Part shown: positions 2 to 27,519 of the stretch, piece after piece
How positions within the stretch are numbered: the first letter of the stretch is position 1
Layout of the letters: every line of letters starts with the position of its first letter
IMG/VR virus record: IMGVR_UViG_3300042922_001018
DNA: 64,000 bases
DNA from: a virus
Taxonomy: Duplodnaviria; Heunggongvirae; Uroviricota; Caudoviricetes
Strand: one strand, 5' to 3'
Translations under genes and position numbers: made by a program
The notes under the pieces: generated by a model
What the model saw: only the letters and a program-made list of their open reading frames with translations
Told to the model about the DNA's origin: nothing
Databases searched by the model: none

Positions 2-121
2 CCATTCGTCAACGCCTTGCTGGCCCGTATTGTCCGCGAAGCCAGCGACCTGCACAGTCGTATGAACGAGTTCAGCCGCGTGCTGGGGATGTTCGCTCCG
101 TCTACGCCCGCGTACATGTAG
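2..121 (+). CDS. 3' end of a truncated hypothetical protein
   Basis: Frame open from the window edge (PFVNALLARIVRE...TPAYM) to TAG at 119-121. Confidence 0.4.
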   Translation, partial: PFVNALLARIVREASDLHSRMNEFSRVLGMFAPSTPAYM

Positions 122-123
122 GT

Positions 124-792
124 GTGACATTCGCCCTTTCGCAGCACCCTCGTGAGACCAACGGGCGTTTCGCGACCAAGGTCGGCGCAGCAGCAGAGGT
201 TGCCCTCATCTCGGTACCCGTCGTTGAGAAGAGCGGCCTCGCCCATGTCGGGACACTGAACGCCGCCGACAAGAAGTCGCATTCGTATGAGGGGCAAGGC
301 CTCAGCGTCTCCCAACATCCGGACGCCTGGCAGAAGATTGCACGCCTCAGCGGCAACGTCCGCAAGTTTTCGCGCCTCGGTCGATTCCTTGACTTCCACG
401 AGCTGAACGATGAGCAGCGTGAGGACATCGCGACATACGCATTGGCGCAGGGGTGGGTCGAGCGTGCGGATGTTCACTACGTCTCCTACCACGACGATGA
501 GTGGGAACAGGACATGCGACTAGAGTTCTCAGATTACGATGAAGCTCTCGAAGAGGCGGAAGCGATTGAAGCAGAAGTCGAAACGGTGTCCGGCTTCAAG
601 TATCTGGACCTGCCCGACAGCACTGCTCGCCCCGGCGAGACGGCAGACTTCGGTATCGTCACGGCCGCATGGGTCAATGAGCAGCGTCCCGACCTGGACG
701 GCGTATGGTGGGATGATGACCTAGACGAAAGTCGCCTCAGCGCTCCGCGGGGCGTCATCGTCCCTTCTCGCATTGCGTCATGGCTCGCATGA
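124..792 (+). CDS. Leader-tagged protein 1; possible ADP-ribosyltransferase-like fold
   Basis: N-terminus MTFALSQHPRETNGRFATKVGAAAEVAL; the H-x-G ... GLSVS spacing loosely recalls the ART fold (weak). Confidence 0.75.
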   Translation: MTFALSQHPRETNGRFATKVGAAAEVALISVPVVEKSGLAHVGTLNAADKKSHSYEGQGLSVSQHPDAWQKIARLSGNVRKFSRLGRFLDFHELNDEQREDIATYALAQGWVERADVHYVSYHDDEWEQDMRLEFSDYDEALEEAEAIEAEVETVSGFKYLDLPDSTARPGETADFGIVTAAWVNEQRPDLDGVWWDDDLDESRLSAPRGVIVPSRIASWLA

Positions 793-801
793 CCGCCTAC
801 A
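793..801 (+). promoter_or_regulatory. CCGCCTACA motif (putative alternative-sigma -10 element), 7 nt before ATG 809
   Basis: Same motif and 7-nt spacing at 7024, 8748, 16460 and 17901; variant CCGCGTACA at 108. Confidence 0.65.
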
Positions 802-808
802 GCCGGTC

Positions 809-1723
809 ATGACTTTCAACGAGAAGAAGCACCCCCGCAAGACGGATGGCAAGTTCGCCGCGAAGACCGGCACCGCCTCCGGGATTTCGCTGGCAGGCTC
901 AAAGCTCGAACAGACGCAAGCGCTCATCGGCGTCGCAAGGTTCGATGTTGATTACGACGATGACGTGGACTCTCTCGCTCGTGAGCTTCGCTCGGAAGGC
1001 CTCAGTGACCTCTCGGTACGCACACTCTCCAGCATCATCAAGCAGGACCGATTCTGGGATGTAGAAGGGGACTCGCGGTCTATCAAGTCGGATGAGCTTG
1101 CCGACGAGATTCTCCGCGACCGCAGCGAAGATGAGGTCGCCATCGCCGACCACCTCGCAGGCGGCTCCGGCGCCGTATGGTCCGGCAAGGACAGCACCAC
1201 GCCCGAAGGCTACTACGCCACGTTCGGGAAGGCCGGAGACGGTTCCACCTACACCTATCTCCTGGATGACGAGACGAAGAGCATCGTTGGCCGTATCGAG
1301 TCGAACCTGAAGCCGGGTCAGGAGGGTCGGTTCGATACTCGCGTCTACGAGGGTTCGAGCCTTCGCGGTGGCTACTACATGGGTGCTGGCTCGCCGAACG
1401 GCCATCAGGAAATCTTCTCAGACATCGCGCGCATGCACGAAGGCCGCAAGGCTGTCGCTCGCGTCGATGCGTCACTCAGCGAATCGAGCGACTTCCGCAT
1501 CTCGGAGTACGCCTCCCGCGCGGCCGAAGGCGATTCGACACTGGAGCACATCCTCCGTCACGAGAACGGCATCAACGTCATCCTACGACGCAAGCTGCTC
1601 CAGGCTTACCAGTCGGAGAATGGCCGTGTCGAAGTCCCCAAGCTCATCGAAGAGAACGCCTCCATGATTGACGGCGACCTTCTCCGAGACCTGCGAAAGC
1701 TTGCCGCTGACGCCTCGCAGTGA
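809..1723 (+). CDS. Leader-tagged protein 2 (acidic hypothetical)
   Basis: Start moved to ATG 809 (MTFNEKKHPRKTDGKFAAKTG), which lies 7 nt after CCGCCTACA. Confidence 0.8.
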   Translation: MTFNEKKHPRKTDGKFAAKTGTASGISLAGSKLEQTQALIGVARFDVDYDDDVDSLARELRSEGLSDLSVRTLSSIIKQDRFWDVEGDSRSIKSDELADEILRDRSEDEVAIADHLAGGSGAVWSGKDSTTPEGYYATFGKAGDGSTYTYLLDDETKSIVGRIESNLKPGQEGRFDTRVYEGSSLRGGYYMGAGSPNGHQEIFSDIARMHEGRKAVARVDASLSESSDFRISEYASRAAEGDSTLEHILRHENGINVILRRKLLQAYQSENGRVEVPKLIEENASMIDGDLLRDLRKLAADASQ

Positions 1724-1881
1724 CGTTCTGCTTCGTTCTAAAAAAGGTGTGCTAGGCTCTTCTCGTACCCACCGCCGGGTGGGTGCCCACTAGCCTCGGA
1801 CCTCGGGGAGTGTGGTAGAATAGGAACAAGGCCAACACCGGCCCTGCCCAACATACGGAACCAGAGAAAGTAGAGAAACAC

Positions 1882-2367
1882 ATGGCAGGCGAGACCATCA
1901 TCACTGTGGTTGGTAACCTCACGGCGGACCCGGAGCTGCGCTACACGCAGAGCGGACTCCCGGTCGCCAACTTCACCATCGCGAGCACGCCTCGCTCGTT
2001 CGACCGTCAGGCGAACGAATGGAAGGACGGCGAAGCGCTGTTCCTCCGCTCGTCCATCTGGCGTGAGGCGGCGGAGCACGTGGCCGGTTCGCTGAAGAAG
2101 GGCGACCGCGTCATCGCGACCGGCGCGCTGAAGCAGCGCTCCTACCAGGACCGCGAGGGCCAGAACCGGACCTCCATCGAACTGGAAATCGAGGAGGTCG
2201 GCCCGTCGCTGCGGTACGCGACGGCCCAGGTCACCAAAAGCGCGGCTTCGGGGGCTTCGAAGCCTGCTGCGACTGCTGAGGCGAGCACGGCGGCTCCCGC
2301 CGCTCCCGCTGCCTCCGCTCCCGCAGCACCGGCAGCAGCCGCCGCTCCCGCCGACGACATCTTCTGA
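1882..2367 (+). CDS. ssb: Single-stranded DNA-binding protein
   Basis: Typical actinobacterial SSB N-terminus [22 protein letters not shown]; OB fold, Ala/Pro linker, acidic tip DDIF. Confidence 0.96.
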
Positions 2368-2454
2368 GTCGTCAGCACCGCGTCAACCACAGCATGTTGA
2401 GCCGTTAGGTAGAGGAACTTCCGAACCACACGACCCAACTAGCTAGGTCACCAC

Positions 2455-2487
2455 CGATGCCCCCGGCCATTCAGGTCGGGGGCATCG
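2455..2487 (+). terminator. Hairpin terminator after ssb
   Basis: CGATGCCCCCG...CGGGGGCATCG inverted repeat. Confidence 0.65.
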
Positions 2488-2517
2488 TGCTTCCATGATA
2501 AGCTAGGCGACGGAGAA

Positions 2518-3539: not shown

Positions 3540-3560
3540 TGCTGGTACAATGGACTCAGC

Positions 3561-5741: not shown

Positions 5742-5758
5742 TCTGAGGCAGGGCACCC

Positions 5759-7023: not shown

Positions 7024-7032
7024 CCGCCTACA
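7024..7032 (+). promoter_or_regulatory. CCGCCTACA motif, 7 nt before ATG 7040
   Basis: Exact motif at fixed spacing. Confidence 0.65.
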
Positions 7033-7039
7033 CACGAGC

Positions 7040-7606
7040 ATGCTGCTAGAACAACCTCGTGACCTGGGTGGCCGATTCTCCGAAAAGGAAGGCCAGGCGC
7101 CAGAAGTGACCCTCTCCTACAACGACCACAACATCCGTCTCAACATCGAAGACGGTGACGAGGCTGTCTTCGACCGAGTGGACCTCGGCGACCAGAACAT
7201 CCCGTACGAGACGGTCACAGTCGAACGCGACGGCGACACCTACTACATCCAGGGTGAGACCGACTTCCTCAACATGGCGTACAACATGTACCCCGACATC
7301 GAGGACGAAGATGCCCGCAAGGCTCAGCTCGCGAAGGACTGGCCTCGAATCGCTCGCGTCGCCAATGAGGCTTACGGCGACATCTTCAACGAGCAGGTTC
7401 CCGCCGGACCGCGCTTCCGCTACTCGCCCGACCTCGGCTCCGTGGACACGACCTCACTCACCTCCAGCAAGGTCCGCCACGCCATCTACGAGCAGGAGGA
7501 CCAGCTCTCCGCCGCTCAGGCCATCCGGTCCGGCGCCCTCTACGAGCTGGTCCGCAACAACATCACCGCCGCGGAAGACGACAGCGATGACGACGACCTC
7601 GACTGA
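7040..7606 (+). CDS. Leader-tagged protein 3
   Basis: MLLEQPRDLGGRFSEKEGQAPEVTL; very acidic. Confidence 0.8.
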   Translation: MLLEQPRDLGGRFSEKEGQAPEVTLSYNDHNIRLNIEDGDEAVFDRVDLGDQNIPYETVTVERDGDTYYIQGETDFLNMAYNMYPDIEDEDARKAQLAKDWPRIARVANEAYGDIFNEQVPAGPRFRYSPDLGSVDTTSLTSSKVRHAIYEQEDQLSAAQAIRSGALYELVRNNITAAEDDSDDDDLD

Positions 7607-7672: not shown

Positions 7673-8470
7673 ATGCCTGATACGCGCGGCTTCCTTCCCG
7701 ACGGCACTCATGCTGAAACGGGTGTCGCGCGTGACCCGCAGGGGTACGACGCCCAAGGCCAGCACATCTCCCAGAGCAAGCAGACCCGAGGTCTGCGCGG
7801 AGAGCAGCCCCGGCGCGAAGACGGGAAGTTCGGCGAGAAGACCGGTGCTGCGCCGGAAGTCACTCTCGATGAGCGGAGCGACGTAGTCGAACCGTACGTC
7901 GGCATCCTCGGCGAAACGCCTTCGCAGTACGCGCGCCGCAGCCAGCGGTTCGAGCAGCTCCTACGTCGTGACCTGAACATCGACGAAGATACGACCACTG
8001 AACAAGCGCTTCGCTACAGCGACCTGGACGCACGAAGCATCATCGCCCTGATGCACGCGGCAGTCGAGAACGAACATCACGCCGACACTGTCGCCGCCTG
8101 GCCCGAAGTAGATGCCCTCTACGCGCAGGCGCAGTCCGCCGAACGCCGTCTCCTGGACACCGAAATCCGCGCGCTCCTCAACGAGCACCGGCCAGGAACG
8201 AAGAGCATCCTCCTCGGGACATGGAGCGGGGTCACCGATGTAGACCTCGTCGCATTCGAGAACGAAGACGGTACCCTCGATACCGACTACGACAGCATCA
8301 ACGCTGCGACCGCTTTCCACTCGAAGAACTACCAGCGTTTCACCCGGCTCATCGAAAGTGGCGCATACGCGCGCGTAACCGATGAGGAACAGGCTACCTT
8401 CCGCGACCGAGTCGAAGGCGAGCAGAAGCTCGTCGGACAGGCCTTCTACCGAATCGGAGTACAATCATGA
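7673..8470 (+). CDS. Leader-tagged protein 4 (leader ~43 aa inside the ORF)
   Basis: EQPRREDGKFGEKTGAAPEVTL near the N-terminus. Confidence 0.75.
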   Translation: MPDTRGFLPDGTHAETGVARDPQGYDAQGQHISQSKQTRGLRGEQPRREDGKFGEKTGAAPEVTLDERSDVVEPYVGILGETPSQYARRSQRFEQLLRRDLNIDEDTTTEQALRYSDLDARSIIALMHAAVENEHHADTVAAWPEVDALYAQAQSAERRLLDTEIRALLNEHRPGTKSILLGTWSGVTDVDLVAFENEDGTLDTDYDSINAATAFHSKNYQRFTRLIESGAYARVTDEEQATFRDRVEGEQKLVGQAFYRIGVQS

Positions 8471-8745: not shown

Positions 8746-8747
8746 AC

Positions 8748-8756
8748 CCGCCTACA
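8748..8756 (+). promoter_or_regulatory. CCGCCTACA motif, 7 nt before ATG 8764
   Basis: Exact motif at fixed spacing. Confidence 0.65.
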
Positions 8757-8763
8757 CCCTGGC

Positions 8764-9540
8764 ATGACTTTCAACCCGACTGAGCACCCGCGCGCGAATG
8801 ACGGCAAGTTCGCCGAAAAGCTGGGCGCGGCGCCAGAAGTAGGACTCCAGGGGCCGACTACCACCGCAGACATTCGTGACCTCGTTCAGCAGATTGAACC
8901 CGGTGCTACGAAGCTCGTGTACACGGACCAGGATAACGGTGGCCCGCGCGTCATGACACTCCGGGACGACCACAACATCATCCTGAACTACGGTGTAGGC
9001 AAGTGGGAAGACCTCGACGCCGCACTCGACCGCTACGAGCCATCCTTCGGTGGGGCGAGAGACTTCAAGGTCATCCAGGAGAGCCGCCTCACGCCAGATG
9101 TCGAGAAGCTCTCCGGCTTCCTGAACAACCCGAAGCTCTCCACGGCAGACATCACGACCGACGAACTCGGTCGCCTGCGCTACGCCGTCAACCACGCCGA
9201 GTTCCGCCTGGCCGAGAAAGAACTCGGCAAGCTCCTCACCGAAGAAGCACCCGGCGCGTTCGGTATCGCCGTGGCTGAAGACGACGAAGGCAACGCCTAC
9301 CCGCTGGGTATCGAGACCCATGAAGCCATCCCGAACATCGGTCGCAACTGGGGCGTCATCGACTACGAGAACATCCCCACTCCCATCCGCGACTGGTTCG
9401 TCACTGATGGATACCGTCTCGGTCGCGATGACCGACTCACCGATTACGCCGAGAACCTGACCAACTCCTACGGCGACTTCGACGATGACGACATCGTCTG
9501 GGATGGTCGTCCCGTCTATCGCGTGGCGGTGCCAGAATGA
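8764..9540 (+). CDS. Leader-tagged protein 6
   Basis: MTFNPTEHPRANDGKFAEKLGAAPEVGL. Confidence 0.85.
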   Translation: MTFNPTEHPRANDGKFAEKLGAAPEVGLQGPTTTADIRDLVQQIEPGATKLVYTDQDNGGPRVMTLRDDHNIILNYGVGKWEDLDAALDRYEPSFGGARDFKVIQESRLTPDVEKLSGFLNNPKLSTADITTDELGRLRYAVNHAEFRLAEKELGKLLTEEAPGAFGIAVAEDDEGNAYPLGIETHEAIPNIGRNWGVIDYENIPTPIRDWFVTDGYRLGRDDRLTDYAENLTNSYGDFDDDDIVWDGRPVYRVAVPE

Positions 9541-11648: not shown

Positions 11649-11684
11649 GTAGCGCCGTGAACTCGGGCATGGTACGATGAGACC

Positions 11685-12509
11685 ATGTCCGAGTTCACGC
11701 ATGAAGTCTCCGAAGACGGCCTCACCCTGACTACCTCTGTCGCGGCCGGTGACATCACTGGCTCTGTGTCCGTCACGTGGGAGACCGCTGAGGTCGCAGC
11801 CGCACACATCGACACGACGAAGCTCGCCAACGAGGCGCGACTCAGTGAGATGGTCAATATCGGACGCTCGACCTCTGCGGGCATCTCCCGTAAGCGCCTC
11901 GGCCCGTTCTCCGTCGGGTATGGCAGCACCCGAGGGGACTACGACAACTGGCTCCTGCGTATCGGCAGCCTCGCGATTCGCCCGTCCGGAATCTCCCGTG
12001 AGGCAGACGGAAACCGCTTCGCCCTCGGCTTCGGCACTCGCCGTAAGGCCAGGTTCCTGACCGTGGAGAAGCACACTGACCCCGCAGCCCCGGCGCCCGA
12101 GGCGGAGACCAAACGCGTCATCAGTCGTGAAGACGTGGCGGTCCCGCTGAAGAACCCGTTCCGTCACGGCGACACCGTCATCGTCCCGGCGGGAGCGCTT
12201 GTCTGGGAGAAGGACATGCGCGAAGGCAAGACCATCGACCGCAAGCGCACGGTCAAGCCATGGCATCTCGGCGACGGCTACTTCTCCATGGAGAAGCTCT
12301 CGCCCGGTCACTACGGCTCCGGCCTCGTCGGCACCATCCTCGCTCACAAGCCGTACATAGTCTGGGGCGAGAAGGAGCTGCGCACCGAGGTTACTCCGGA
12401 GCTTCTCGAAGCGAACGGCAAGTCAGTGGAGTACGTAGAGGGCGAGTATGAGAACTTCTCCGCCTACATCGAGTCAGGCAACTACGAGCTGAAGGATATG
12501 GGCCTATGA
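11685..12509 (+). CDS. Untagged hypothetical protein with PLKNPF domain
   Basis: Leaderless transcript signature (TACGAT-6nt-ATG); PLKNPF...LEANGK domain shared with 12718 and 13587. Confidence 0.8.
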   Translation: MSEFTHEVSEDGLTLTTSVAAGDITGSVSVTWETAEVAAAHIDTTKLANEARLSEMVNIGRSTSAGISRKRLGPFSVGYGSTRGDYDNWLLRIGSLAIRPSGISREADGNRFALGFGTRRKARFLTVEKHTDPAAPAPEAETKRVISREDVAVPLKNPFRHGDTVIVPAGALVWEKDMREGKTIDRKRTVKPWHLGDGYFSMEKLSPGHYGSGLVGTILAHKPYIVWGEKELRTEVTPELLEANGKSVEYVEGEYENFSAYIESGNYELKDMGL

Positions 12510-14630: not shown

Positions 14631-14654
14631 CATCCCGTTTGCTAGACTGTCCGC

Positions 14655-15353
14655 ATGCCTAAGAAAGCAGCGCCAGAAATCAAGGGTGTCACACCCATCC
14701 CGAAGCCGCTGACGGAACTCAGCGGCTACGACGGTCCCTACAAGGACGGCATCTACCCCGACAGATTCGGTGGTAAGGGCTGGACCACGCTCCGCGTTGA
14801 GGACGAGTACGCAGACTACACGATGGCGCTGAAAGCGCCGGACGGTACCGTCATCACCGCCCAGCAGGCGCCGAACAACGACCTGCACATCGAGGTGAAG
14901 AAGGACGGTGCTATCGTCGAGACCACCGACCTCGGACCGCTCGACTATCTTCGTCCGCATCACTTCGGTGAGAACGGCTACGACCTGTACTCCGCCGCTC
15001 ATGAGCATCTCCTGTTCCTGGTGCAGTTCCGGAACAACCGCCTCACCACCCTCCGGCACCTCTTCCCCGGTGACTGGATTGACATGTTCCCGCTCCTGAC
15101 CCGTCTGAAGGAGGACGGCGAGATGCGCGTGGACAAGGAGAAGCTCTCCGAAGCCGAGGACAACAAGTTCCTCATCGAGGACGTGGAACGCGAGAAGGAC
15201 GGCGTCGTCATTCTGTACACCGACGGTGGCATCTTCACGTTCGACACCGACCTTCAGTCCTACGAGAAGTACAACTTCATCCGGATTCTGAAGCACGAGC
15301 CGAAGCACGCCAAGGACTCGATGTACCCGCAGTTCCGCCGCCCGCTCTACTGA
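14655..15353 (+). CDS. Hypothetical protein, paralog of 10938-11648 without the full leader
   Basis: Shared PDGT...HL.F...FRN...PGD..DM.P.L.RL...FLI.DV.RE...V.LY; TAGACT-6nt-ATG. Confidence 0.8.
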   Translation: MPKKAAPEIKGVTPIPKPLTELSGYDGPYKDGIYPDRFGGKGWTTLRVEDEYADYTMALKAPDGTVITAQQAPNNDLHIEVKKDGAIVETTDLGPLDYLRPHHFGENGYDLYSAAHEHLLFLVQFRNNRLTTLRHLFPGDWIDMFPLLTRLKEDGEMRVDKEKLSEAEDNKFLIEDVEREKDGVVILYTDGGIFTFDTDLQSYEKYNFIRILKHEPKHAKDSMYPQFRRPLY

Positions 15354-15428: not shown

Positions 15429-15437
15429 CCGCCTACA
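15429..15437 (+). promoter_or_regulatory. CCGCCTACA motif ~40 nt upstream of the RBS-led gene at 15477
   Basis: Exact motif directly after a terminator. Confidence 0.55.
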
Positions 15438-15476: not shown

Positions 15477-16154
15477 ATGTCTTTCACCGAGGCTGAGCAC
15501 CCCCGCGCGACCGATGGCAAGTTCGCTGAGAAGACCGGCGCGTTTCCGGAAGTCTCTCTGACCGACACGAAGCGTGAACTCATGCTGGGCAACATTCAGC
15601 AGAGCATCGCGCTCCTCAGTGATGCAAGCTTCGAGAAGTTCCCGCTCTCCATGCAGGAGTCCGCTATTGCGGCGGTGAACAGCCGGGAGGCGGACGATGA
15701 AATCCTCGCTGCGGCAGACGAACTGGCCGAAGCCTGCGAGTCCTGGAACTTCCATGACACGTCCCTGAAGCTGCGCGCTGGCATCTCGCGCAAGCATCAC
15801 GCAGCCGACCCGGACGCTCCACTCGACCACCCATACGCGCTCGCGTACGACCCTTCAACGCCGCCGGAGCTGCTCCGCCGTGTACGAGACGAAGGCGGCA
15901 GCACGTACACGTACGCGTTCCTCTCCAACGGGAGCGCGCCCAGCGAGTTCATCGACGAAATCGCTGGGGCTGAGAATGCTTGGATGCGCCAGCGCGCAGC
16001 CGCCCACCCGAACATCTCCAGTGTGGTCCTCCAGAAGCTCATGGACGATGACGACGACACTGTCCGCGACATGGCGAAGGCACAGATGGGGCACCGCAAC
16101 CGCATGTCGCTTGCGGAGCACTGGGAAGGCCGCGACAGTGACGAAGCAGTTTGA
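15477..16154 (+). CDS. Leader-tagged protein 13 with HEAT/LRV-like helical repeats
   Basis: MSFTEAEHPRATDGKFAEKTGAFPEVSL; repeats such as AAAHPNISSVVLQKLMDDDDDTVR; GAGGAG RBS. Confidence 0.85.
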   Translation: MSFTEAEHPRATDGKFAEKTGAFPEVSLTDTKRELMLGNIQQSIALLSDASFEKFPLSMQESAIAAVNSREADDEILAAADELAEACESWNFHDTSLKLRAGISRKHHAADPDAPLDHPYALAYDPSTPPELLRRVRDEGGSTYTYAFLSNGSAPSEFIDEIAGAENAWMRQRAAAHPNISSVVLQKLMDDDDDTVRDMAKAQMGHRNRMSLAEHWEGRDSDEAV

Positions 16155-16479
16155 CGAAGCAGAAGTCAGTCGGCATCTCGACGGCAAGTTCGGCGAGAAG
16201 CTAGGCAGTCAGCCAGAGGTATCGCTCGCGCCAACGCTGACTCCTACGCGCCAGGAGGCCTTGTCAAAGGCCGCTGACGGCGAAGTCACGCACATGATGT
16301 CTACCCGACTGGGCGGCAAGAACATCCCCGCGCACTACCGTATCGACCACAGGAAGGTGCCCGGCGCCGCCTACGAGTGGCTCCGCGCCAACGGGTACAT
16401 CCGGCACGATAGCCCGAGCCTCCGCGGTACGAAGGTCATCTTGACCGAAGCGGGCGAAGCCGCCTACAGCCAGTCATGA
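16138..16479 (+). CDS. Leader-tagged protein 14, possible winged-helix domain
   Basis: GTG 16138 after GGAAGG: MTKQFDEAEVSRHLDGKFGEKLGSQPEVSL; LTPTRQEAL...WLRANGYI...ILTEAG pattern. Confidence 0.75.
   Translation: MTKQFDEAEVSRHLDGKFGEKLGSQPEVSLAPTLTPTRQEALSKAADGEVTHMMSTRLGGKNIPAHYRIDHRKVPGAAYEWLRANGYIRHDSPSLRGTKVILTEAGEAAYSQS
16460..16468 (+). promoter_or_regulatory. CCGCCTACA motif, 7 nt before ATG 16476
   Basis: Exact motif at fixed spacing, embedded in the upstream gene. Confidence 0.6.
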
Positions 16480-17189
16480 GCTTCGACCCACAGGAACACC
16501 CCCGCGCCACTGACGGCACCTTCTCTCAGAAGGTAGGAACAGAGTCCGAAGTGGCTCTGGCACCTACGCCTTCCGTCATTGTCGCTGAAGGTGGCTCCGA
16601 CAGTATCGCGTTCACGGCTCCTGACGGTGAAGAGCTGGTCATGTACCACGACGAGAAGCAGTTCGCCGAGCACATCGACCCCATGGTCCGCGAACGCGAA
16701 GACGGCAACTTCGACGTGTACTTCGCATCCTACGACGAAGACCCACCGGAGTATCAGTTCATGGAAGGCGACGAGCTGGAAGGCTTCAGCTCCGCATGGG
16801 AACGAGATGAGTACATCGAGAAGAAGCTCTCCGAAGGCGTCTCGCCACAGAACATCTTCGTCGTAGAGCGCTTCGAGCACAGCAGCGTTCGCTACACGCC
16901 CCTTGCCAACTGGGAAGAGTGGTCCAACGACCCCCGCCCGGAAAGCCAGCGGCTCAACGACCAGTGGGACTCCGCTCCCAGCCATGTCTACATCGCGGGT
17001 GAAAGCGACAACCCGGCCGAGCAGGCAAAAGGCATCATGGACGACTACACCGACTACGCCAACGGTGACAACTACGTACTCCACCACAACGTCGTAGACC
17101 GCGATGGTGAGGTGCTGGAGCGCGAGAGCGTTCACGGTTTCATCGGCTCGGATGCCGCTGAAGAGAGCGTTCGCGCCGGAGAGGTCTGA
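16476..17189 (+). CDS. Leader-tagged protein 15 (very acidic)
   Basis: MSFDPQEHPRATDGTFSQKVGTESEVAL. Confidence 0.85.
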   Translation: MSFDPQEHPRATDGTFSQKVGTESEVALAPTPSVIVAEGGSDSIAFTAPDGEELVMYHDEKQFAEHIDPMVREREDGNFDVYFASYDEDPPEYQFMEGDELEGFSSAWERDEYIEKKLSEGVSPQNIFVVERFEHSSVRYTPLANWEEWSNDPRPESQRLNDQWDSAPSHVYIAGESDNPAEQAKGIMDDYTDYANGDNYVLHHNVVDRDGEVLERESVHGFIGSDAAEESVRAGEV

Positions 17190-17900: not shown

Positions 17901-17909
17901 CCGCCTACA
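17901..17909 (+). promoter_or_regulatory. CCGCCTACA motif, 7 nt before ATG 17917
   Basis: Exact motif at fixed spacing. Confidence 0.65.
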
Positions 17910-17916: not shown

Positions 17917-19221
17917 ATGACCTTCAACGAAGCGGTAGTGAACCGTGACACTGTCGGCCGCTTCTCTGAGAAGAACGGCCTCGCGCCGGAGATTTTCCTG
18001 GACACGGACGAGCACCCCGACGAACTCGATGACCTCGCCCCAGCTCTGAGCTACACCATTCCGATGCACAATCTGGAAGCGTTCCGCGACCGCATCGACA
18101 AGGCGAACCGCAAGCTGGAAAGAGCGGGTATCGACGAACGCTTCAAGATGACCTACGCGCCTGAGATTCGTCGCGAAGAGGACGGCTCATTCACCCAGGT
18201 CGCATCCGTCGAACTCAACCAGCCCGTCATCAGCCACGGCGATTTCCGTTTCCTCGCCTACCACGAGGCCACGCCCAACGGCGACTTCATCACCCACGCG
18301 CAAGGGCGCGATATCGCCGACCCGACCGACGGCCGCTGCGACCACTGCAAACTGAACCGTCATCGCGGCAAGCTCTACACGGTCCAGAACAAGGAGACTG
18401 GCGAGGTACTCCAGGTAGGTTCCACCTGTCTAGAGCCATTCTTCGGCGTGAAGCCGAGCGGGCTGTGGGCGCTGGAAAACGAGGACGGACTCGACCTCGA
18501 AGAGTTCCGGTACCAGCCGGGCGGCGGCAATGGCTCGTCTCGCGCTTACGATGGCGACACACTGCTTCTTGCGGCGTACCGCGCTACGAACCGTGGCGAG
18601 AACTACGTCTCGCGTGACCGCGCAGACTACCAGAACCGCGCTACCGCCGACATCGTACGAGAGCAGCTCGACACTCGGTACACCGCGTCCGACGGTGAGA
18701 CCTACGCGGGTCACCCAACGGACGAGGAGACCGCGTACATCAAGCGCCTGAAGGAGTACGTCTCCGGTCTGGGCGATGAAGAAGAGTACGAACGCAATCT
18801 GAAGACGGTCCTCACCCCTGCCGAAGACGGAAGCACTTACGTCGGTTCGAAGCACATCGGTATCGCCGCCTCCGCGGTGGCAGCGCTCGCTCGCGCAGAC
18901 CGTCAAGCGGCCCGCGATGCAGCGAGGGCCGCACAGAATGCTTCGAAGAAGCAGGAGTATCTGGCACCCCCGAAGACAAAGGTCGCAGGCGTAAAAGCGA
19001 AAGTGACCGGTATCCATGGGTTCGATAATCAGTACGGATACCAGGAAATCGTCATCATGCAGGATGACCAAGGGCACATTCTGAAGTGGAAGACTTCGAG
19101 TTCCCCTGACCTAAGCACGGGCGATGACATCGTTCTGAGTGCCACTGTGAAGGACAATGAGGTCTACAACGGTGACTTCCAGACCTCCATCATCCGGCCG
19201 AAGTTCGAGAAGCAGACCTGA
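17917..19221 (+). CDS. Leader-tagged protein 17 with Zn-binding motif and probable C-terminal OB fold
   Basis: MTFNEAVVNRDTVGRFSEKNGLAPEIFL; CDHC...VGSTC; beta-rich C-terminus ending TSIIRPK. Confidence 0.8.
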   Translation: MTFNEAVVNRDTVGRFSEKNGLAPEIFLDTDEHPDELDDLAPALSYTIPMHNLEAFRDRIDKANRKLERAGIDERFKMTYAPEIRREEDGSFTQVASVELNQPVISHGDFRFLAYHEATPNGDFITHAQGRDIADPTDGRCDHCKLNRHRGKLYTVQNKETGEVLQVGSTCLEPFFGVKPSGLWALENEDGLDLEEFRYQPGGGNGSSRAYDGDTLLLAAYRATNRGENYVSRDRADYQNRATADIVREQLDTRYTASDGETYAGHPTDEETAYIKRLKEYVSGLGDEEEYERNLKTVLTPAEDGSTYVGSKHIGIAASAVAALARADRQAARDAARAAQNASKKQEYLAPPKTKVAGVKAKVTGIHGFDNQYGYQEIVIMQDDQGHILKWKTSSSPDLSTGDDIVLSATVKDNEVYNGDFQTSIIRPKFEKQT

Positions 19222-19238
19222 AGACGTAGGTCTACACC

Positions 19239-19281
19239 CGGTGAAGGGGCATTCGAGCAGATTTCGGGTGCCCCTTCACCG
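19239..19281 (+). terminator. Hairpin terminator ending the tagged-gene array
   Basis: CGGTGAAGGGGC...GCCCCTTCACCG. Confidence 0.65.
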
Positions 19282-19319
19282 TTCCATCGGCCTACCATGA
19301 ACCTGAGAGCAAGCTGAGA

Positions 19320-19680
19320 AAGTGGGTAAATGGGTAAATGGGTAATACCCACCTACCCACCTTTTGCTCTCAGCGTTCTCCCATGTTAACGCTAACACCC
19401 GCGGAAACACGGGGATTTCGGCTGTTTTTGGCCTTGCGTCCCTCGCGTCCCCTAGAAAACACTGGGATGTTGACGATAACATGGTGAGCTGCGTCAGCGT
19501 GCGTCCCGGCACAACTGGTTAAGTCTGGGAAAACGCTGGGAGACTCGATTCCACAGCGGAGTAGGGCGGAAACCCTTGAAAACACTGGGGAGAAGGGGCC
19601 TCTCTACTACTACTTACTCTTCAAATTTGGTTAGAATTAGATAGATAGAGGGGACGCTGCGTCACTGCGTCCCGTTTTTC
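19320..19680. repeat. Repeat-rich non-coding region, candidate replication origin or partition site
   Basis: 3x TGGGTAAW followed by inverted TACCCA copies; GAAAACRCTGGG x3 plus a variant; GCGTCCC x5; AT-rich tract ~19603-19650. Confidence 0.55.
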
Positions 19681-19830
19681 CCGCTCGTATAGGGCGGGGT
19701 TGGTTCATTCATGCAATAGAACAAGGGGAGTCTCTATAGGGGCTAGTACCGCGGACACCGGATACAAGCTGCGAGTGCAGCCGAACTCAGATTCCCGCAA
19801 AAAGTTTCTCGCGAGGTGCATAAAGGGTGT

Positions 19831-22164
19831 ATGAGCAAGCTGGGAATCATCGCACCATCGAACTTGGTTCAGTTCTTCAAGCAACTGGGCGTAGAAGTCA
19901 TCGAATCGCAGACCGGGGAACGCGAGTCTGCCGTAGCCATCACGAACGCTGTCTCGGCAGCGCCCGGAAGCGCACCGCGCTTCCCCATCCTCATCCACGG
20001 AGCCGTAGAGTTCATGGGCGCAAGCGCCTGGCTCCGCGCCATGACGACGACCCGCGGGTACACCGCCCTTATCCTCGGTGGAGACCCCGAGCAGTTCAAG
20101 AACGCCGGGGAAGCTTCGCACCTCGCGCTTCCCGCCTCGATGCAGGACGTTTTCGTCGCGCTCGGTCCTGAATTCGCAGGCATCGCTGCCAACAACCGTT
20201 TCGGAAACCTCGTCGTGGGCGAAGACTACGGAATCACCGATGCTACGGCCGCTGTTGCCGAAGCCCCCGCTCCCCAGCAGGAATCCGTCTACGCGGACCT
20301 GCCCGAAGACCTCATCCCCGCACCCGTCTCCACCGAGACTACGAGCGCGCCCACATGGGCGCAGGCTGCCCCTTCCCCTGCTCAGCAGCCTGCACCTGTC
20401 CCGGTCGTTCCCGTAGCTCCGGTGGATGCGGATGTCCCGGCATGGGCACAGGCAGCCGTTCCCGCTCCTGCGCCCGCTCCGGCGGCAGCGCCCACCGTTC
20501 CTGCGCCCGCTCTTGCGCCGGAAACGGGTGCGGGTGATGACACTCCTGCCGAACCGCTTCCGGTGCTGACGCCAGAAGCGTACGAGGCGACTTTCGAGGA
20601 AGAGGCTCCGGTCGCTGCACCGCAGCCTGCTCCCGTCCAGGAATGGACGCAGGCGGCTCCGCCGGTCGGCGAGCCGGTCTACCGTCCCGAGCAGGTTTCA
20701 ACCCCCGCTCCGACTGGCGCGCCGCTTACGCGACGTGAAGCTGCCGCGCTGGCAGCAGCCCAGGCCGCAGCGACCAGCGCTCCCGTGCAGGAAGACGCCC
20801 CCGCGTGGGCCACAGACCCGACTCCGACCCCCGCGCCTCAGCCTGCGTTCACCCCTGAGCCTGTCGCTCAGCCTGCGTTCACTCCGGCACCGACCCCGCA
20901 GCCGGAGCCGGAAGCGCCTGCCGCACAGGTTCCCTTCGTGCAGACTCCGGCTGTCCAGCCGTTCGTGGCCCCCGCACTCGCACCGGCCCCCGCCCCGACG
21001 ACGCCAGAGCGGAAGCTCACCGTCTTCGACCCGTACAGTGGCGGTACGTCCACCGCGCCGGTACACACGTACGAGCAGAATCCGGCTCCCGCGGCACAGC
21101 CCGCTCCGACTCCTGCACCTGAGCCGACGTTCGCACCTGAGCCGACTCCGTCCATCCCCGTGTTCAACCCGGCTTCCCCGCCGTCGGCGCACCAGCCGCT
21201 TCCTGTCCCGGTAATGCCGCGTCCGGAAGCCGACTACGCCCTGCCTGCCCAGCAGGCTCCGGCCTACGTCGAACCTCCGGCATACACAGCTCCTCGCATG
21301 GAGCCGGTGCCGAGCACCTTCGCTGGCCCACGAGCCAAGATTGTCGCTTCGTTCGCCGGTAAGGGTGGCGTAACGAAGACGACGACTGCCCTCATCATGG
21401 CGAAGAAGGCGGCGGACGCTCGCCTGCGGACTGTCGTCATCGACATGGACAAGGGCCAGGACAACGTCGCGGCGTACATGCGTCTGCGTTCGGCTTCTCT
21501 CCCGACCATCTTCGATGCTGTCGCCGCCGGTCGCCCGGAAGCTGCACTCATCACCCCTGACCAGTACGGAAAGTTCCGTCACGAGGCCGCAGGTCGTCTT
21601 GACTTCGCTGTCGTCTTCGGTCCGGGCAACGAGCACGCGTCGAACCACCCTTCGCTCACGAGCGATGTCTACCGCCAGGTCATCGACTTCGCTGCCGCAA
21701 ACGCCGACCTCGTGATTCTGGACACCCAGATTCTCAAGGCCGACCGGAGCGCTTCGAAGCTGTTCTACGATGTGGTCGCTCCTCTTCTCGTCGAGGAGGC
21801 GTACGGCGTCGGCATCACCGACCAGTCGCGCGCGGGTCTCGAAGACCTGGAGAACCGCCTGAAGGAACTCCAGAAGAACGAGGGGCTGACCCGCGACCGC
21901 ATGCTCATCATGGCCGCGAACACGACTGGATTCAACCAGACCCAGGCGGAGTCCTTCGCTCGCCGCTTCCGCACCTACGGCGACTTCATCGGCGCTACGT
22001 CTTCTGACGATGCGTTCAAGGCGCAGCTCAACGTAGGTCGTATCGACGCAGACTCGCCCGCCGTGTCCGCGACGATGGATGCTATCCTTCACAAGGTGAC
22101 GGGCAACGATGTGTTCGCGCCCAAGCCGGTGAAGAAGCGCCGCGGTCTCTTCGGCCGCGGCTGA
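19831..22164 (+). CDS. MinD/ParA/CpaE(TadZ)-like ATPase with long Pro/Ala linker
   Basis: Deviant Walker A GKGGVTKTT, VVIDMD, LVILDT; basic/hydrophobic tail KKRRGLFGRG resembling the MinD membrane-targeting sequence. Confidence 0.8.
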   Translation: MSKLGIIAPSNLVQFFKQLGVEVIESQTGERESAVAITNAVSAAPGSAPRFPILIHGAVEFMGASAWLRAMTTTRGYTALILGGDPEQFKNAGEASHLALPASMQDVFVALGPEFAGIAANNRFGNLVVGEDYGITDATAAVAEAPAPQQESVYADLPEDLIPAPVSTETTSAPTWAQAAPSPAQQPAPVPVVPVAPVDADVPAWAQAAVPAPAPAPAAAPTVPAPALAPETGAGDDTPAEPLPVLTPEAYEATFEEEAPVAAPQPAPVQEWTQAAPPVGEPVYRPEQVSTPAPTGAPLTRREAAALAAAQAAATSAPVQEDAPAWATDPTPTPAPQPAFTPEPVAQPAFTPAPTPQPEPEAPAAQVPFVQTPAVQPFVAPALAPAPAPTTPERKLTVFDPYSGGTSTAPVHTYEQNPAPAAQPAPTPAPEPTFAPEPTPSIPVFNPASPPSAHQPLPVPVMPRPEADYALPAQQAPAYVEPPAYTAPRMEPVPSTFAGPRAKIVASFAGKGGVTKTTTALIMAKKAADARLRTVVIDMDKGQDNVAAYMRLRSASLPTIFDAVAAGRPEAALITPDQYGKFRHEAAGRLDFAVVFGPGNEHASNHPSLTSDVYRQVIDFAAANADLVILDTQILKADRSASKLFYDVVAPLLVEEAYGVGITDQSRAGLEDLENRLKELQKNEGLTRDRMLIMAANTTGFNQTQAESFARRFRTYGDFIGATSSDDAFKAQLNVGRIDADSPAVSATMDAILHKVTGNDVFAPKPVKKRRGLFGRG

Positions 22165-22173
22165 CGGGAAGAC

Positions 22174-22986
22174 GTGTCCAAGTATCAGGCGATTCGCGGG
22201 TACCTGGGCCGACTGGATGACATCTGGGCGCGTCTCGCGTACATTCCTTTCGGTCTTGTAGACCTCTCGCAGTATCCGGCCGAGTGCCTCGGGGCGGTTG
22301 TCCCGAGGCACATCGGCGAGCACACGGTCGTGTGGTCAGACGTACCCGTCATCCTCGACGAAGAACATGACATCGAGTGGATTTCGGAAGTCGGCCGAGG
22401 CCGGGTGACGGCGTACACCGACGGCGAGATGCACGGTACGCTGCCCGCCGAACTCATCGAGCTTGCGCCGCTGCGTGTTCTTCGACAGAAGGGCAAGGAA
22501 GCTGCCTGGGAACTCGTCATGCGACTGGAACCGTACGTTCTCTCGCTGGTCCTCGGCGCTGCGCGTCGTATCGCTGCGGAGGTAGGTCAGCCGGGCAGCG
22601 TGCTCGACGACGTAGCGGCTGACGAGGTGACGGACGAGCTGGTTACAGGTGGCCTGGTGCTGAAGCTCGTTGAGCGTCTTGCGACGACGGAGAAGCTGCT
22701 GAGCCAGTCACTCGGTTCCTACCTGCACATCAACCTCCGTTCGATGGCGGAGACGGCTGTTCGACGCCGCATCGGCGACCCCCATGTGGGCCGTAAGATT
22801 CGCCGTGTTTTCGCGGAATCTGGCGCTTCCTCGATGCCGGAACTCCTGGCCTATTACCGTGACAAGTACCCCTCGGAAAAGGTATCTGAGAAGCGTGCAC
22901 TTGCGGCACTGTCGGCTGGTAGTCTAGTCGGAGCGAGCGCTTTGCCGTTCGATGAAACCATCTTCGAGGAGTCCCATGACCGCTGA
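22174..22986 (+). CDS. Hypothetical protein (helical, possibly DNA-binding)
   Basis: Operonic ORF with suitable codon usage. Confidence 0.65.
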   Translation: MSKYQAIRGYLGRLDDIWARLAYIPFGLVDLSQYPAECLGAVVPRHIGEHTVVWSDVPVILDEEHDIEWISEVGRGRVTAYTDGEMHGTLPAELIELAPLRVLRQKGKEAAWELVMRLEPYVLSLVLGAARRIAAEVGQPGSVLDDVAADEVTDELVTGGLVLKLVERLATTEKLLSQSLGSYLHINLRSMAETAVRRRIGDPHVGRKIRRVFAESGASSMPELLAYYRDKYPSEKVSEKRALAALSAGSLVGASALPFDETIFEESHDR

Positions 22987-23401
22987 CATGACTGAGCTGT
23001 CCGTAGCTCACGCAGCGGCTCGCCGAGTCCGCGCTGAGTGGCTGGCTGGCCTGGAGCAGGGCTTCGTGACGCTCGCTGACTTTCTCGCCTTCGCGGCCGA
23101 CAGCACCGATGAGTCATCCCGTGAAGCTGTTCGGCGTATGCGCCTGGTTTCGGTCCTCGGCGCGGCGTTGAACAGCCGTCCCCGCGCGTATTCGGCCGTT
23201 GTTCACATCCTGGCTGTTGCTCACAATGACCGAGACTCGAAGCTCGAATACCCCGCACCCAGCAAGCTTCGGGTGTCGTGGCTGTTCGACAAGCGTACGC
23301 ATGGCAAGCGCATCCTGATGCTCGCGGATGCGCTCACCCCGCGTAACGCCCCTCCTGTTCTAGGGTTCCCTTTCCGCGTGCCGAAGGCGGCTGCGGCATG
23401 A
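22976..23401 (+). CDS. Actinobacterial integration host factor (mIHF/sIHF)-like protein
   Basis: AAARRVRAE...LEQGFVTLADFL...AVRRMRLVSVL parallels mIHF AAARRARAE...LKRGGTNLTQVL...VLGKMKVSALL (recalled); GAGGAG RBS. Confidence 0.6.
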   Translation: MTADMTELSVAHAAARRVRAEWLAGLEQGFVTLADFLAFAADSTDESSREAVRRMRLVSVLGAALNSRPRAYSAVVHILAVAHNDRDSKLEYPAPSKLRVSWLFDKRTHGKRILMLADALTPRNAPPVLGFPFRVPKAAAA

Positions 23402-24234
23402 GCACTCTAGACGAACAGAAGACTTCCGCCCTTGTATCGACAGCGCTCGGTACAACGGGCGCGGCGCGTCGGCGTGCCGAGAACAACCTCATCGAGTACC
23501 TCTACCGCTCTGGCGTAATGGAGGTGTGGGCGAACTCGCTGGCGAATCGCCACGGTGAAGTCGGTGTCCGCCACAGAGAAGACCTCGTAGGGGTCATTGC
23601 GGTGGCCCTAACCAAGTGGCTTCAAGACCTCGAAGTGTCCCGCCTCGAAGACGTGAAGTCCTGGCCTTCGTTCATGTTCCGCATCGCGGCGTTCGGTGTT
23701 CGCGACTACCTGAACTCCTCCCAGGTGACAGTCGCATCGAAGATGTCCGCCTTCGCTCGGCGTACTCGGTACATCGGGTACGCTCAGGAGAAGCTCCGAG
23801 ACGACCTGGGACGGGAACCTACTCGCGAGGAGGTCATCGAGTTCGCGAACGCTGAGGCCGCTCGTCGTCTGAAAGACCCGAAGCGCCAGGGCGCTCTCAT
23901 CGACCACCAGGACTTCGGGGACGTTGCCCGCCCGGCTGCGGATGTCTCCGAGCTGAACATGAGTTCTCCGGCCGCAGACAGCAACCTCGCAGAACGCATG
24001 CAGGTAGAGTCCGCGATGGACCGCGTATTGTCCGAGTGCCAGCGCCGGTCGCCGAACGACGAGCAGCTCATGAGCGTGGTCAACGAGTGGGTAGACATCG
24101 TCGCTTCCGGAGACGAACCCACGCCGCACATCATCTCGCGCTCGCTGGGTCTGTCCATGACGGCTACCGCCCGTGCGCTAGACACACTGAACTCGGTCCT
24201 GGCCGACATGCGCCGGGAGTCAGTAGCGGCCTGA
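23398..24234 (+). CDS. Divergent sigma70-family sigma factor-like protein
   Basis: Region-2-like EDL...VRDYL, region-3 LGREPTREEV, C-terminal HTH-like ISRSLGLSMTATARAL. Confidence 0.65.
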   Translation: MSTLDEQKTSALVSTALGTTGAARRRAENNLIEYLYRSGVMEVWANSLANRHGEVGVRHREDLVGVIAVALTKWLQDLEVSRLEDVKSWPSFMFRIAAFGVRDYLNSSQVTVASKMSAFARRTRYIGYAQEKLRDDLGREPTREEVIEFANAEAARRLKDPKRQGALIDHQDFGDVARPAADVSELNMSSPAADSNLAERMQVESAMDRVLSECQRRSPNDEQLMSVVNEWVDIVASGDEPTPHIISRSLGLSMTATARALDTLNSVLADMRRESVAA

Positions 24235-24437: not shown

Positions 24438-24481
24438 GGCGCTGTAACTCCGACCTGTTTGGCTGTGCTATGCTTGCTAGC

Positions 24482-26456: not shown

Positions 26457-26460
26457 CACG

Positions 26461-26507
26461 ATGCGAAGAGGGCCGGTACAGACAGTCTGTACCGGCCCTC
26501 TTCGCAT
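26461..26507. terminator. 23-bp perfect palindrome between convergent genes
   Basis: ATGCGAAGAGGGCCGGTACAGAC-A-GTCTGTACCGGCCCTCTTCGCAT. Confidence 0.7.
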
Positions 26508-26519
26508 TCCTGCGAACGT

Positions 26520-27107
26520 CTATCCCTCTGGGAGAGAGTCCTTCTTCTCGGGCTGGGCACCGTCCGCGGGCACATCGGCGATGGCTTCGATGATACGGTC
26601 ACGCTCGGCCGGGTCCATCGTGAACAGTACATCACCTTCGAAGGCCCACCAGGCTGCGGTCTCTTGGGCGCGTTCCTGCGCGTAGTCACTGCCCTGCCCG
26701 AGGATTCCTCGGAAGTGGGAGGGCTCTTGGGAATGCGCTCCGTCTTCGACCCAGCGCTCGAACTGGGCGATGTTCGCTTCGAGGTTCTGGCCCACGAAGT
26801 AGACGGTGCGCGTCGAGCCGTCGTCCATGGTGATTTCGTGCTCGGCAGTCTCAGGCGCCTCGTCGCGGCTGCGCAGCCGGATGAGGCTCTTGCGCTGTCC
26901 ACCGGTCTCGTACTCGGTAGCGCCCATGTACGGCATGTGGTAGACCTGCATGCCCGGCTTGCCTGCGTCCCAGTCACGTCGTTCGAGAGGCTGGACGAGG
27001 TCGAAGTTGTCATAGCCCTCATCGTCGAGGCCGATGCTGGGCGCGGTTCCGGTCTTCGGGGCGTACTTGCCGTCGTTCGCGCGGGGGTGCTTCTCGTCTT
27101 CGTACAT
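26520..27107 (-). CDS. Leader-tagged protein 18 (isolated, minus strand)
   Basis: MYEDEKHPRANDGKYAPKTGTAPSIGL; TATTCT-6nt-ATG. Confidence 0.8.
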   Translation of the reverse strand: MYEDEKHPRANDGKYAPKTGTAPSIGLDDEGYDNFDLVQPLERRDWDAGKPGMQVYHMPYMGATEYETGGQRKSLIRLRSRDEAPETAEHEITMDDGSTRTVYFVGQNLEANIAQFERWVEDGAHSQEPSHFRGILGQGSDYAQERAQETAAWWAFEGDVLFTMDPAERDRIIEAIADVPADGAQPEKKDSLPEG

Positions 27108-27121
27108 GTTCTAAGAATAGC

Positions 27122-27153
27122 AGAACGCCCCGCGGTTCTCCACGGGGCGTTCT
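27122..27153 (-). terminator. Terminator after nrdH
   Basis: AGAACGCCCCG...CGGGGCGTTCT. Confidence 0.6.
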
Positions 27154-27170
27154 CGGTTCTGCGGGGCAGG

Positions 27171-27467
27171 TCAGGCGGCGACGAGGGACGCGCTCTTGAC
27201 CCATTCGTCGAGCTTGTCGGGGTCGTACCCGGTCCACTTGTCCGTGATGTTCCCCTCGGTGTCGCGAACGACGAGCGTGGGCATCTGGAGGTTCTTCAGT
27301 CCGTTGACGACGAAGTCGTACGCCTCCGGGTCGGTGGTCACGTCGATGTAGACGTAGTCACCGTTCTCGTGCTTGAAGCCCTTCGAACTCAGGTGACGCA
27401 CGCTGCCGGTGCACTGCACGCAACCGGGCTTCGAGTAGAGGGTGAGGGTGGTGGCGGAATCGGCCAT
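27171..27467 (-). CDS. nrdH: NrdH-like glutaredoxin
   Basis: TLYSKPGCVQC active site; WTGY.PDKL resembles NrdH WSGFRPD. Confidence 0.85.
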   Translation of the reverse strand: MADSATTLTLYSKPGCVQCTGSVRHLSSKGFKHENGDYVYIDVTTDPEAYDFVVNGLKNLQMPTLVVRDTEGNITDKWTGYDPDKLDEWVKSASLVAA

Positions 27468-27510
27468 TGGGGGTGTTGCTCCTTCTTAGGTGAATGTTTC
27501 GGTAGGGGTG

Positions 27511-27519
27511 TGTAGGCGG
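27511..27519 (-). promoter_or_regulatory. CCGCCTACA motif upstream of nrdH
   Basis: TGTAGGCGG on +; TCCACCGCCTACA context shared with the 15429 copy. Confidence 0.55.

Follow-up and report, generated by a model that had tools for sequence, protein, structure and literature searches.

A recurrent GC-rich box with promoter-like geometry in a 64-kb virus record and its sister boxes on Micrococcales megaplasmids

Box copies in the window and the genes behind them

The DNA analysed here (the window) is a stretch of 64,000 nucleotides (nt) from the IMG/VR virus record IMGVR_UViG_3300042922_001018, which is classified as Caudoviricetes. The replicon is regarded here as a giant plasmid of actinobacterial type. 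The window contains a 9-mer box, CCGCCTACA, that recurs upstream of genes whose products share an N-terminal tag, and a gene for a sigma-like protein (23398-24234). From its position, conservation and distribution the box is very probably a promoter element, and the sigma-like protein is the best candidate for its reader.

The exact box was found nine times in the window, on the plus strand at 793, 7024, 8748, 12460, 15429, 16460 and 17901 and on the minus strand at 27511 and 62589. Dinucleotide-preserving shuffles of the window contain 0.44 +/- 0.73 copies, and none of the 100 shuffles (0/100) reaches nine. A first-pass annotation of the window had expected about one copy by chance, and the enrichment holds. 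It had also reported eight exact copies, all before start codons; these eight are real, but a ninth copy at 62589(-) is not followed by a gene. Five of the nine exact copies (793, 7024, 8748, 16460 and 17901) are followed by a spacer of seven nucleotides (N7) and an ATG, and the chance of an ATG at one fixed offset in 5/9 copies is estimated at ~4e-8. At 108 a variant with one mismatch, CCGCGTACA, is followed by N7 and a GTG. The annotation had listed these six sites as lying seven nucleotides before tagged genes without a Shine-Dalgarno (SD) sequence, and all six were borne out: the six genes share the tag, with the consensus MTFxExEHPRATDGKFAEKxGxAPEVxL or, in another form, MTFNxxEHPRxxDGKFxEKxGxxPEVxL, and GGAG, GAGG or AGGA is present in none of the six spacers. 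Three other copies of CCGCGTACA (18731+, 57625- and 60518-) are intragenic with no start codon 3' of them; the variant is therefore counted only at 108, where start codon and tag follow.

The copies at 12460, 15429 and 27511(-) are located 37, 39 and 43 nt 5' of the starts at 12506, 15477 and 27467(-), which are preceded by the SD sequences AAGGA, GAGGAG and AAGAAGGAG, respectively. This agrees with the distance of ~40 nt to genes with a ribosome binding site that had been noted before. The ten boxes and the genes behind them are the following:

108..116, +, variant CCGCGTACA, N7, GTG(124) of the tagged gene 124-792
793..801, +, box abutting the stop of the preceding gene, N7, ATG(809) of the tagged gene 809-1723; predicted start 809
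7024..7032, +, box, N7, ATG(7040) of the tagged gene 7040-7606
8748..8756, +, box, N7, ATG(8764) of the tagged gene 8764-9540
12460..12468, +, box within the 3' end of gene 11685-12509; predicted start A 12476
12506-12721, +, tagged gene behind the 12460 box; 30-nt leader with AAGGA
15429..15437, +, box 3' of a strong hairpin (-30.9 kcal/mol) that trails gene 14655-15353; predicted start A 15445
15477-16154, +, tagged gene behind the 15429 box; leader with GAGGAG
16460..16468, +, box, N7, ATG(16476) of the tagged gene 16476-17189
17901..17909, +, box, N7, ATG(17917) of the tagged gene 17917-19221
27511..27519, -, box in a divergent intergenic region; predicted start A 27503; 36-nt leader with AAGAAGGAG
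27171-27467, -, glutaredoxin/NrdH-like gene behind the 27511(-) box
62589..62597, -, orphan box past the stop of gene 62634-63398(-); predicted start A 62581; no open reading frame (ORF) behind it

A start-site signature and two putative classes of leaderless promoters

Counted from the end of the box, base +7 is a pyrimidine and base +8 a purine in 10/10 copies (the nine exact ones and the variant at 108). The four copies without an adjacent start codon all have an A at +8 (tcgagtcA, gagcgttA, cacccctA and cgtagtcA). A pyrimidine followed by a purine at a constant distance, regardless of whether a start codon is present, looks like a transcription start and not like a signal for the ribosome. 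The distance between box and start codon points in the same direction: it is 7 nt in one group of copies, and in the other it is 37-43 nt and spans an SD. Sigma-70-type promoters typically have an element in the -10 region and a purine start at a constant spacing from it, and this arrangement is present in 10/10 window copies. In six of them the element ends N7 before the ATG or GTG, a spacing that would suit leaderless promoters such as those read by sigma-A.

The box would then be the promoter core, covering -16 to -8, and RNA polymerase would initiate at the purine 8 nt past it. If this purine is the A or G of an ATG or GTG, the resulting mRNA would be leaderless and would not need an SD, as proposed for the six tagged genes. 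If the purine is located elsewhere, the mRNA would carry a leader of 30-36 nt with an ordinary SD, as proposed for 12506, 15477 and the NrdH-like operon.

In Corynebacterium glutamicum, TAnnnT precedes 97% of the transcription start sites, and 33% of the mRNAs are leaderless with AUG or GUG as first codon (PMC3890552). The box is different from this SigA-type -10 element: the final T of TANNNT is missing from every copy (0/10 read TACAnT), as the first-pass annotation had stated. Its further statement that other genes here use a TANNNT box is supported as well. TANNNT-N6-[AG]TG opening a long ORF with high GC content at third codon positions gave 17 hits in the window, a sharp peak at spacing 6, while the spacings 2-5 and 7-12 gave 0-6 hits each. 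Examples are found at 11685, 14391, 14655, 36219, 37265 and 38505 on the plus strand and at 63398, 61100, 59650, 57270, 55558, 54593 and 27107 on the minus strand. The arrangement heads at least 14 genes in the window, all of them untagged, and is represented by:

11673..11678, +, TACGAT-N6-ATG(11685) of an untagged gene; the same design lies at 14379-14384 and 14643-14648

Thus, the box would form a second, distinct class, and two classes of leaderless promoters would be used on one replicon.

It might also be imagined that the box acts in the RNA, either as a nuclease processing site just 5' of the AUG or as a translation signal similar to the SAS elements of mycobacteriophages. In strings of genes on the same strand the box is often located 16-24 nt from the preceding stop codon and would thus be present in read-through RNA, and SAS elements are likewise restricted to their genetic elements and lie 3-7 bp before the ATG (PMC3203893). 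Such a signal is difficult to reconcile with the four copies located away from start codons, three of which are followed by an ordinary SD, and with the lack of the AGGAG core that is typical of SAS. In addition, the copy upstream of the NrdH-like gene sits in a divergent intergenic region, which must hold a promoter, and the copy at 15429 comes after a terminator-like hairpin. We therefore regard an RNA-level signal as improbable.

Conservation in metagenomic relatives

Homologues of the sigma-like protein with 68-93% identity are present in metagenome assemblies, and two contigs were compared with the window, L062 (sigma-like protein 91% identical) and L064 (68%). On L062, the box orthologous to the one at 17901 is exact; its spacer reads ctcggat instead of tccgagc in the window, and the sequence upstream of it has diverged, too. 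An alignment of the regions upstream of the NrdH-like gene from the window and both contigs has a single conserved block between the genes, CCGCCTACA together with the A at +8.

These comparisons bear on a further reading, in which the box would be a passive repeat without a role in expression: a recombination scar or cassette junction that was copied together with duplicated 5' ends. The 5' coding sequences of the tagged genes are similar, and the box could belong to a duplicated module. Spacers and upstream flanks, however, differ among the window copies while the 9-mer stays exact, and the box is kept at orthologous sites where the sigma-like protein is only 68% identical (L064). It also heads untagged genes, and ~60-75% of the box-led leaderless ORFs of relatives are untagged. 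A passive repeat is thus very unlikely, more so than a signal in the RNA.

Except for ssb, no close DNA match to the window was found in phage and plasmid collections, and the window gave no match in Rfam and tRNA scans; a scan for E. coli-type promoters and terminators yielded no usable information. IMG/VR scans gave only four chance matches for the box combined with ATGACNTTC and, for the tag-coding pattern, only internal HPRxxDGKF motifs of unrelated phage proteins. A tblastn search with a tagged protein against plasmids gave no match.

Sister boxes on cultured Micrococcales megaplasmids

Sigma-like homologues with 25-34% identity were detected by tblastn on seven plasmids of 370-610 kb from cultured Curtobacterium, Pseudarthrobacter, Arthrobacter and Paenarthrobacter. 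Sister boxes followed by N8-ATG, with the sequence CCGCACACA or CCGCGCA[CT]A, are found on pACHL01, pS16 and other megaplasmids of cultured Micrococcales. Two plasmids were scanned completely, pS16 (NZ_CP126255.1, Curtobacterium sp. MCSS17_016, 546 kb) and pACHL01 (NC_011879.1, Pseudarthrobacter chlorophenolicus A6, 427 kb).

On pACHL01, CCG[CT]ACACA occurs 192 times, in 108 cases with an ATG or GTG behind N8. The other 84 boxes (leadered) are located mostly ahead of leaders with an SD, and the strand of the box tracks the strand of the gene. Some pACHL01 boxes lead into hairpins instead of genes. Samples of 50 kb from two more megaplasmids of Micrococcaceae are dominated by the same box as well. 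The 217 boxes on pS16 belong to two classes that are both spread over the whole replicon: CCGC[GAC]CACA, with 90 copies and a start at N8 in 56 of them, heads tagged genes as CCGC[GAC]CACA-N8-ATG, and CCGCGCATA(G)-N8 is present 127 times, in 49 cases with a start at N8. Whether box spelling differs between plasmids of one host genus turned out to be uninformative, since the two Pseudarthrobacter plasmids spell it alike.

A position matrix of the pACHL01 sites revealed a -35-like element, cGGgGAg, at -38 to -32, with G(-37) in 162/192 and A(-33) in 141/192 sites, and this element is present in both the leaderless (108) and the leadered (84) class. Such a bipartite layout is a hallmark of sigma-70-family promoters and is hard to square with a signal in the RNA; a partner element 15 bp upstream suits sigma region 4. 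The leadered copies of pACHL01 have a purine at +1 in 66/84 cases. Two observations on the sister plasmids were counted for an RNA-level signal. On pS16, G/A is conserved at -3, G at -2 and C/T at -1, where 56/56 sites have C or T, and hairpins are not clearly enriched 5' of the boxes of pACHL01 and pS16.

Restriction to plasmid replicons

GTDB contigs gave access to whole genomes, in which the boxes were counted per replicon. In Curtobacterium pusillum AA3, box-N8-ATG is found twice on the chromosome vs 46 times on plasmid pCPAA3, and in Pseudarthrobacter sp. P1 five times on the chromosome vs 18 times on the 131-kb plasmid C3; in Tersicoccus mangrovi, a single contig of 262 kb holds 41/41 occurrences. 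A similar picture was obtained with the bare 11-mer CCGCACACATG, with 79/79 copies on the 262-kb contig of T. mangrovi and 15 on plasmid C3 vs three on the chromosome of P1. The sister boxes of these three related genomes are restricted to plasmid replicons, and the chromosomes carry them at background numbers. A regulon of a host sigma factor would be expected to have chromosomal members; none were seen, which disfavours a host sigma factor as reader.

P1 plasmid C3 (NZ_CP189586.1, 131 kb) contains 26 boxes, 18 of them leaderless, at ~5-53 kb and 118-131 kb. These stretches are near the ends of the record and, should it be circular, may join as one segment of ~66 kb. Neither the P1 genome nor the Kocuria dechangensis draft was found to have the megaplasmid primase-helicase core, and on C3 the ParA-like cluster was not found either. 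C3 has the appearance of a megaplasmid fragment that was captured. An ordinary sigma factor with regions r2, r3 and r4 is encoded by a second P1 plasmid.

The sigma-like gene as candidate reader

The candidate reader and the genes in front of it are:

23398..24234, +, divergent sigma-70-family gene, 278 amino acids; candidate box reader
19816..23401, +, genes for a ParA/MinD-like ATPase, a 270-amino-acid protein and an mIHF-like protein, co-oriented with the sigma-like gene

Taken alone, the 23398-24234 product gives a weak match to Sigma70_r3, and it contains a GREPT motif. A library-wide profile search yielded 161 relatives, and a profile of 61 family sequences matches the sigma-28 factor FliA over residues 23-123, regions 2 and 3 (E 7.5e-7). 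Pfam identifies Sigma70_r3 in 19/61 members, r2 in 3/61 and r4 in 2/61, with no member robustly above the curated cut-off. An AF2 model built on the family alignment has a pLDDT of 89, and among Foldseek matches in the PDB all of those listed at ranks 1-50 are sigma factors (SigA, SigB, RpoS and FliA), with alignments of 271-319 columns, probabilities of 0.94-1.0 and TM scores of 0.25-0.35. Scores as low as these are expected of flexible domains. Judged by profiles and model, the product is a divergent sigma-70-family protein with sigma-2-, sigma-3- and sigma-4-like parts. The 270-amino-acid protein (22174-22986) was also considered as sigma-like but found no support in profile comparison, Pfam, NCBIfam or PHROGs.

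Homologues of the sigma-like protein are present on pCPAA3, which also has a paralogue, and on the plasmid-like contig of T. mangrovi, with none (0) on the chromosomes; a search of GTDB representative genomes with the profile found no relative. On pACHL01 and pS16, the two plasmids examined for gene order, the sigma-like gene likewise comes after the gene for the ParA-like ATPase. The number of sigma-like genes appears to follow that of the box classes: pS16 has two box classes, two full-length paralogues and two fragments with sigma-4 only, and pACHL01 has one main box class and one sigma-like copy, ACHL_RS22105. No private box was found within ~600 nt upstream of the sigma operon in the window, in ~1 kb at that of pS16, or on the same strand nearby in pACHL01. 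This fits a cascade that starts from the host RNA polymerase.

Since the box lacks the TANNNT motif and the window element has no detectable -35, the housekeeping sigma factor is probably not the reader. The likely reader would be a specificity factor encoded by the element itself, and the 23398-24234 product is the best candidate; it is moderately favoured for this role on sequence grounds. The reading that we prefer, at a probability of roughly 0.55, is thus a plasmid-private promoter that starts messages at the purine at +8 and probably has this sigma-like protein as its reader. The first-pass annotation had proposed a -10 element of an alternative sigma factor that would make leaderless mRNAs, so that the cargo might be expressed as a temporal class of its own. 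The part of this proposal that stands is a promoter element distinct from TANNNT, on the basis of the pyrimidine/purine geometry, conservation, the -35 of pACHL01 and the restriction to plasmids. For the 23398-24234 gene as source of the reader, it is correct that a divergent sigma-70-family gene is present, but two box-bearing replicons have no homologue of it.

It is possible, though less likely, that the promoter is read by another factor, such as an alternative sigma factor of the host, or host SigA together with an activator of the WhiB or mIHF-like type that is encoded by the element. The box-led genes on P1 plasmid C3 and on contigs of K. dechangensis, which lack the sigma-like homologue, speak for this. 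A WhiB-family gene (pS16) or an mIHF-like gene (window) shares the operon with the sigma-like gene and could encode such an activator, and the lack of a -35 in the window element is also seen at activator-dependent or extended -10 promoters. A host factor, however, would be left without a chromosomal regulon (T. mangrovi has 0/79 copies off the plasmid-like contig, the P1 chromosome has three), SigA needs the T of TANNNT (consensus in PMC3890552), which is missing from the box, and the sigma-like gene is syntenic on the megaplasmids examined.

Several results weigh against the private-promoter reading with the sigma-like protein as reader. Among them are the genome of P1, including C3, and the K. 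dechangensis draft, which both have box-led genes and in which no member of the sigma-like family was found. Either the captured segments are silent or helper-dependent, or another factor reads the box; in view of these counter-examples we hold the identity of the reader with clearly less confidence than the promoter role, for which our confidence is high. A shared upstream motif was sought among 11 sites of the window element and no -35 was detected; likewise, the position matrix of pS16 has no conservation upstream of -19, which leaves no detectable -35, though the candidate has a sigma-4-like C-terminus. The correspondence between box spelling and sigma-like genes is drawn from three or four lineages only, and the unclear hairpin enrichment 5' of the sister boxes belongs to the same side of the balance, as does the orphan copy at 62589(-), behind which no gene follows.

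This orphan copy is located next to a 17-bp GC-rich hairpin that extends from the predicted start A 62581 between convergent genes (62480-62597, -); the 102-nt fold has -52.7 kcal/mol and a z of -4.3. The site could give rise to a box-driven short RNA, or it could be a box stranded beside a bidirectional terminator.

Comparison with known systems

Literature searches found no published description of this promoter family. The leaderless promoters of sigma-A are similar in that their element abuts the ATG or GTG and no SD is present, and the window uses the canonical TANNNT-N6 arrangement as well. They differ from the window box in its sequence, CCGCCTACA, which has no final T and whose conserved part reaches into the extended -10 (-16 to -8). 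In addition, sigma-A leaderless promoters are used chromosome-wide, whereas the sister boxes in the three genomes of relatives do not occur on the host chromosomes beyond background.

A plasmid-encoded sigma factor with its own promoters is known from Bacillus subtilis: the regulon of SigN (ZpdN) from pBS32 was mapped on the plasmid, and its own gene has SigA-dependent promoters (PMC6751061). Common to both systems are a sigma-70-family protein encoded on the plasmid, a set of plasmid promoters and, in the stretches examined here, a sigma operon without a private box. SigN has been mapped experimentally, whereas the system described here is known from sequence and its hosts are Actinomycetota. 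With 190-220 boxes per plasmid the relatives have far more sites, most of these promoters would give leaderless mRNAs, and the family of the 23398-24234 protein is very divergent.

The SAS/ESAS elements of Cluster K mycobacteriophages, 5'-GGGATAGGAGCCC located 3-7 bp before the ATG, contain an AGGAG SD core and have a proposed role in translation (PMC3203893). Like the box, they are short, asymmetric, element-restricted repeats that occur in one orientation a few bases before the ATG of varied non-structural genes. Unlike them, the window box and its spacers have no SD core, the box is also found 37-43 nt before SD-led starts, and a sister plasmid has a -35 partner.

The late promoters of phage T4 consist of a -10-region element only, with no -35, and are read by gp55, a divergent sigma-like factor. 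They resemble the window system in having a single extended -10 element without a -35 and a sigma-like candidate encoded by the element. Sequence and host are unrelated, and the candidate here keeps sigma-2-, sigma-3- and sigma-4-like parts and has no known accessory factors.

Scope of the regulon

The window encodes 16 tagged genes, including those at 10076 and 13587, and 8/10 boxes head tagged genes. The claim of the first-pass annotation that the box marks a tagged-gene regulon stands for these eight boxes. It does not cover the NrdH-like operon, the orphan site and the relatives, in which box-led genes are mostly untagged. With a loose pattern, a tag-like core was found in ~27/101 box-led leaderless ORFs of pACHL01 and in ~41/99 of pS16, and a regulon restricted to the tag is thus too narrow. 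In the window, untagged genes such as ssb (1882) and that for an M23 peptidase (3561) are located on the same strand 3' of box-led genes, and between these and downstream untagged genes such as ssb no further promoter box or TANNNT-N6 start was called. Across the family the box appears to be a general plasmid promoter, and in the window element its use appears to be narrowed to the tagged island, with TANNNT in front of others. A tag-like sequence, EQPRREDGKFGEKTGAAPEVTL, is also present in the protein encoded at 7673-8470(+), ~44 residues inside the protein and not at the N-terminus.

We tentatively propose that Micrococcales megaplasmids of 370-610 kb, including pACHL01 of the type strain P. 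chlorophenolicus A6, run a system of a private, very divergent sigma factor and a GC-rich box. The box, absent from the chromosome and with or without a -35, would stand before 100-200 units on each plasmid, of which about half would be leaderless; the window element would have narrowed this system to its tagged 'cargo' and a few other genes. If this is true, the plasmid could switch on, as a block, proteins that are thought to travel with its DNA. With a private promoter and a plasmid sigma factor, giant plasmids would regulate the majority of their genes without recourse to the host, much as large phages do, and this would explain how hundreds of orphan genes stay silent or fire jointly. The box followed by 7-8 nt provides a handle for correcting gene starts and for locating transcription units and small RNAs, and it defines which genes of the window would be co-regulated with the tagged proteins. 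It can be tested in culturable strains, for instance P. chlorophenolicus A6 and the Curtobacterium isolates.

Other features of the window

Upstream of the ParA-like gene is a gap of 594 nt (19222-19815) that has no private box. Besides a hairpin and several copies of a GCGTCCC repeat, it holds GGGTAAAT three times in tandem, and TAGAAT lies in a part rich in AT. With its iteron-like repeats the gap looks like an origin or partition site.

The gene at 27703-30717(+) encodes 1004 amino acids without a Pfam match and has homologues with 34-37% identity on pACHL01, pS16 and the T. mangrovi contig; in the window and on pACHL01 it adjoins the sigma-like gene. We considered it as a private RNA polymerase and rejected this, since its neighbours in the ESM Atlas are DUF3854/Toprim/DUF927 primase-helicases. 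Its product is probably a replication protein.

Two T2SSE-type ATPases, a T2SSF platform protein and a protein with four DUF4379 treble-clef zinc fingers are encoded at 33338-36125(+), 57314-58771(-) and 55612-57279(-). The T2SSE and T2SSF genes are candidates for a pilus or Tad-like apparatus.

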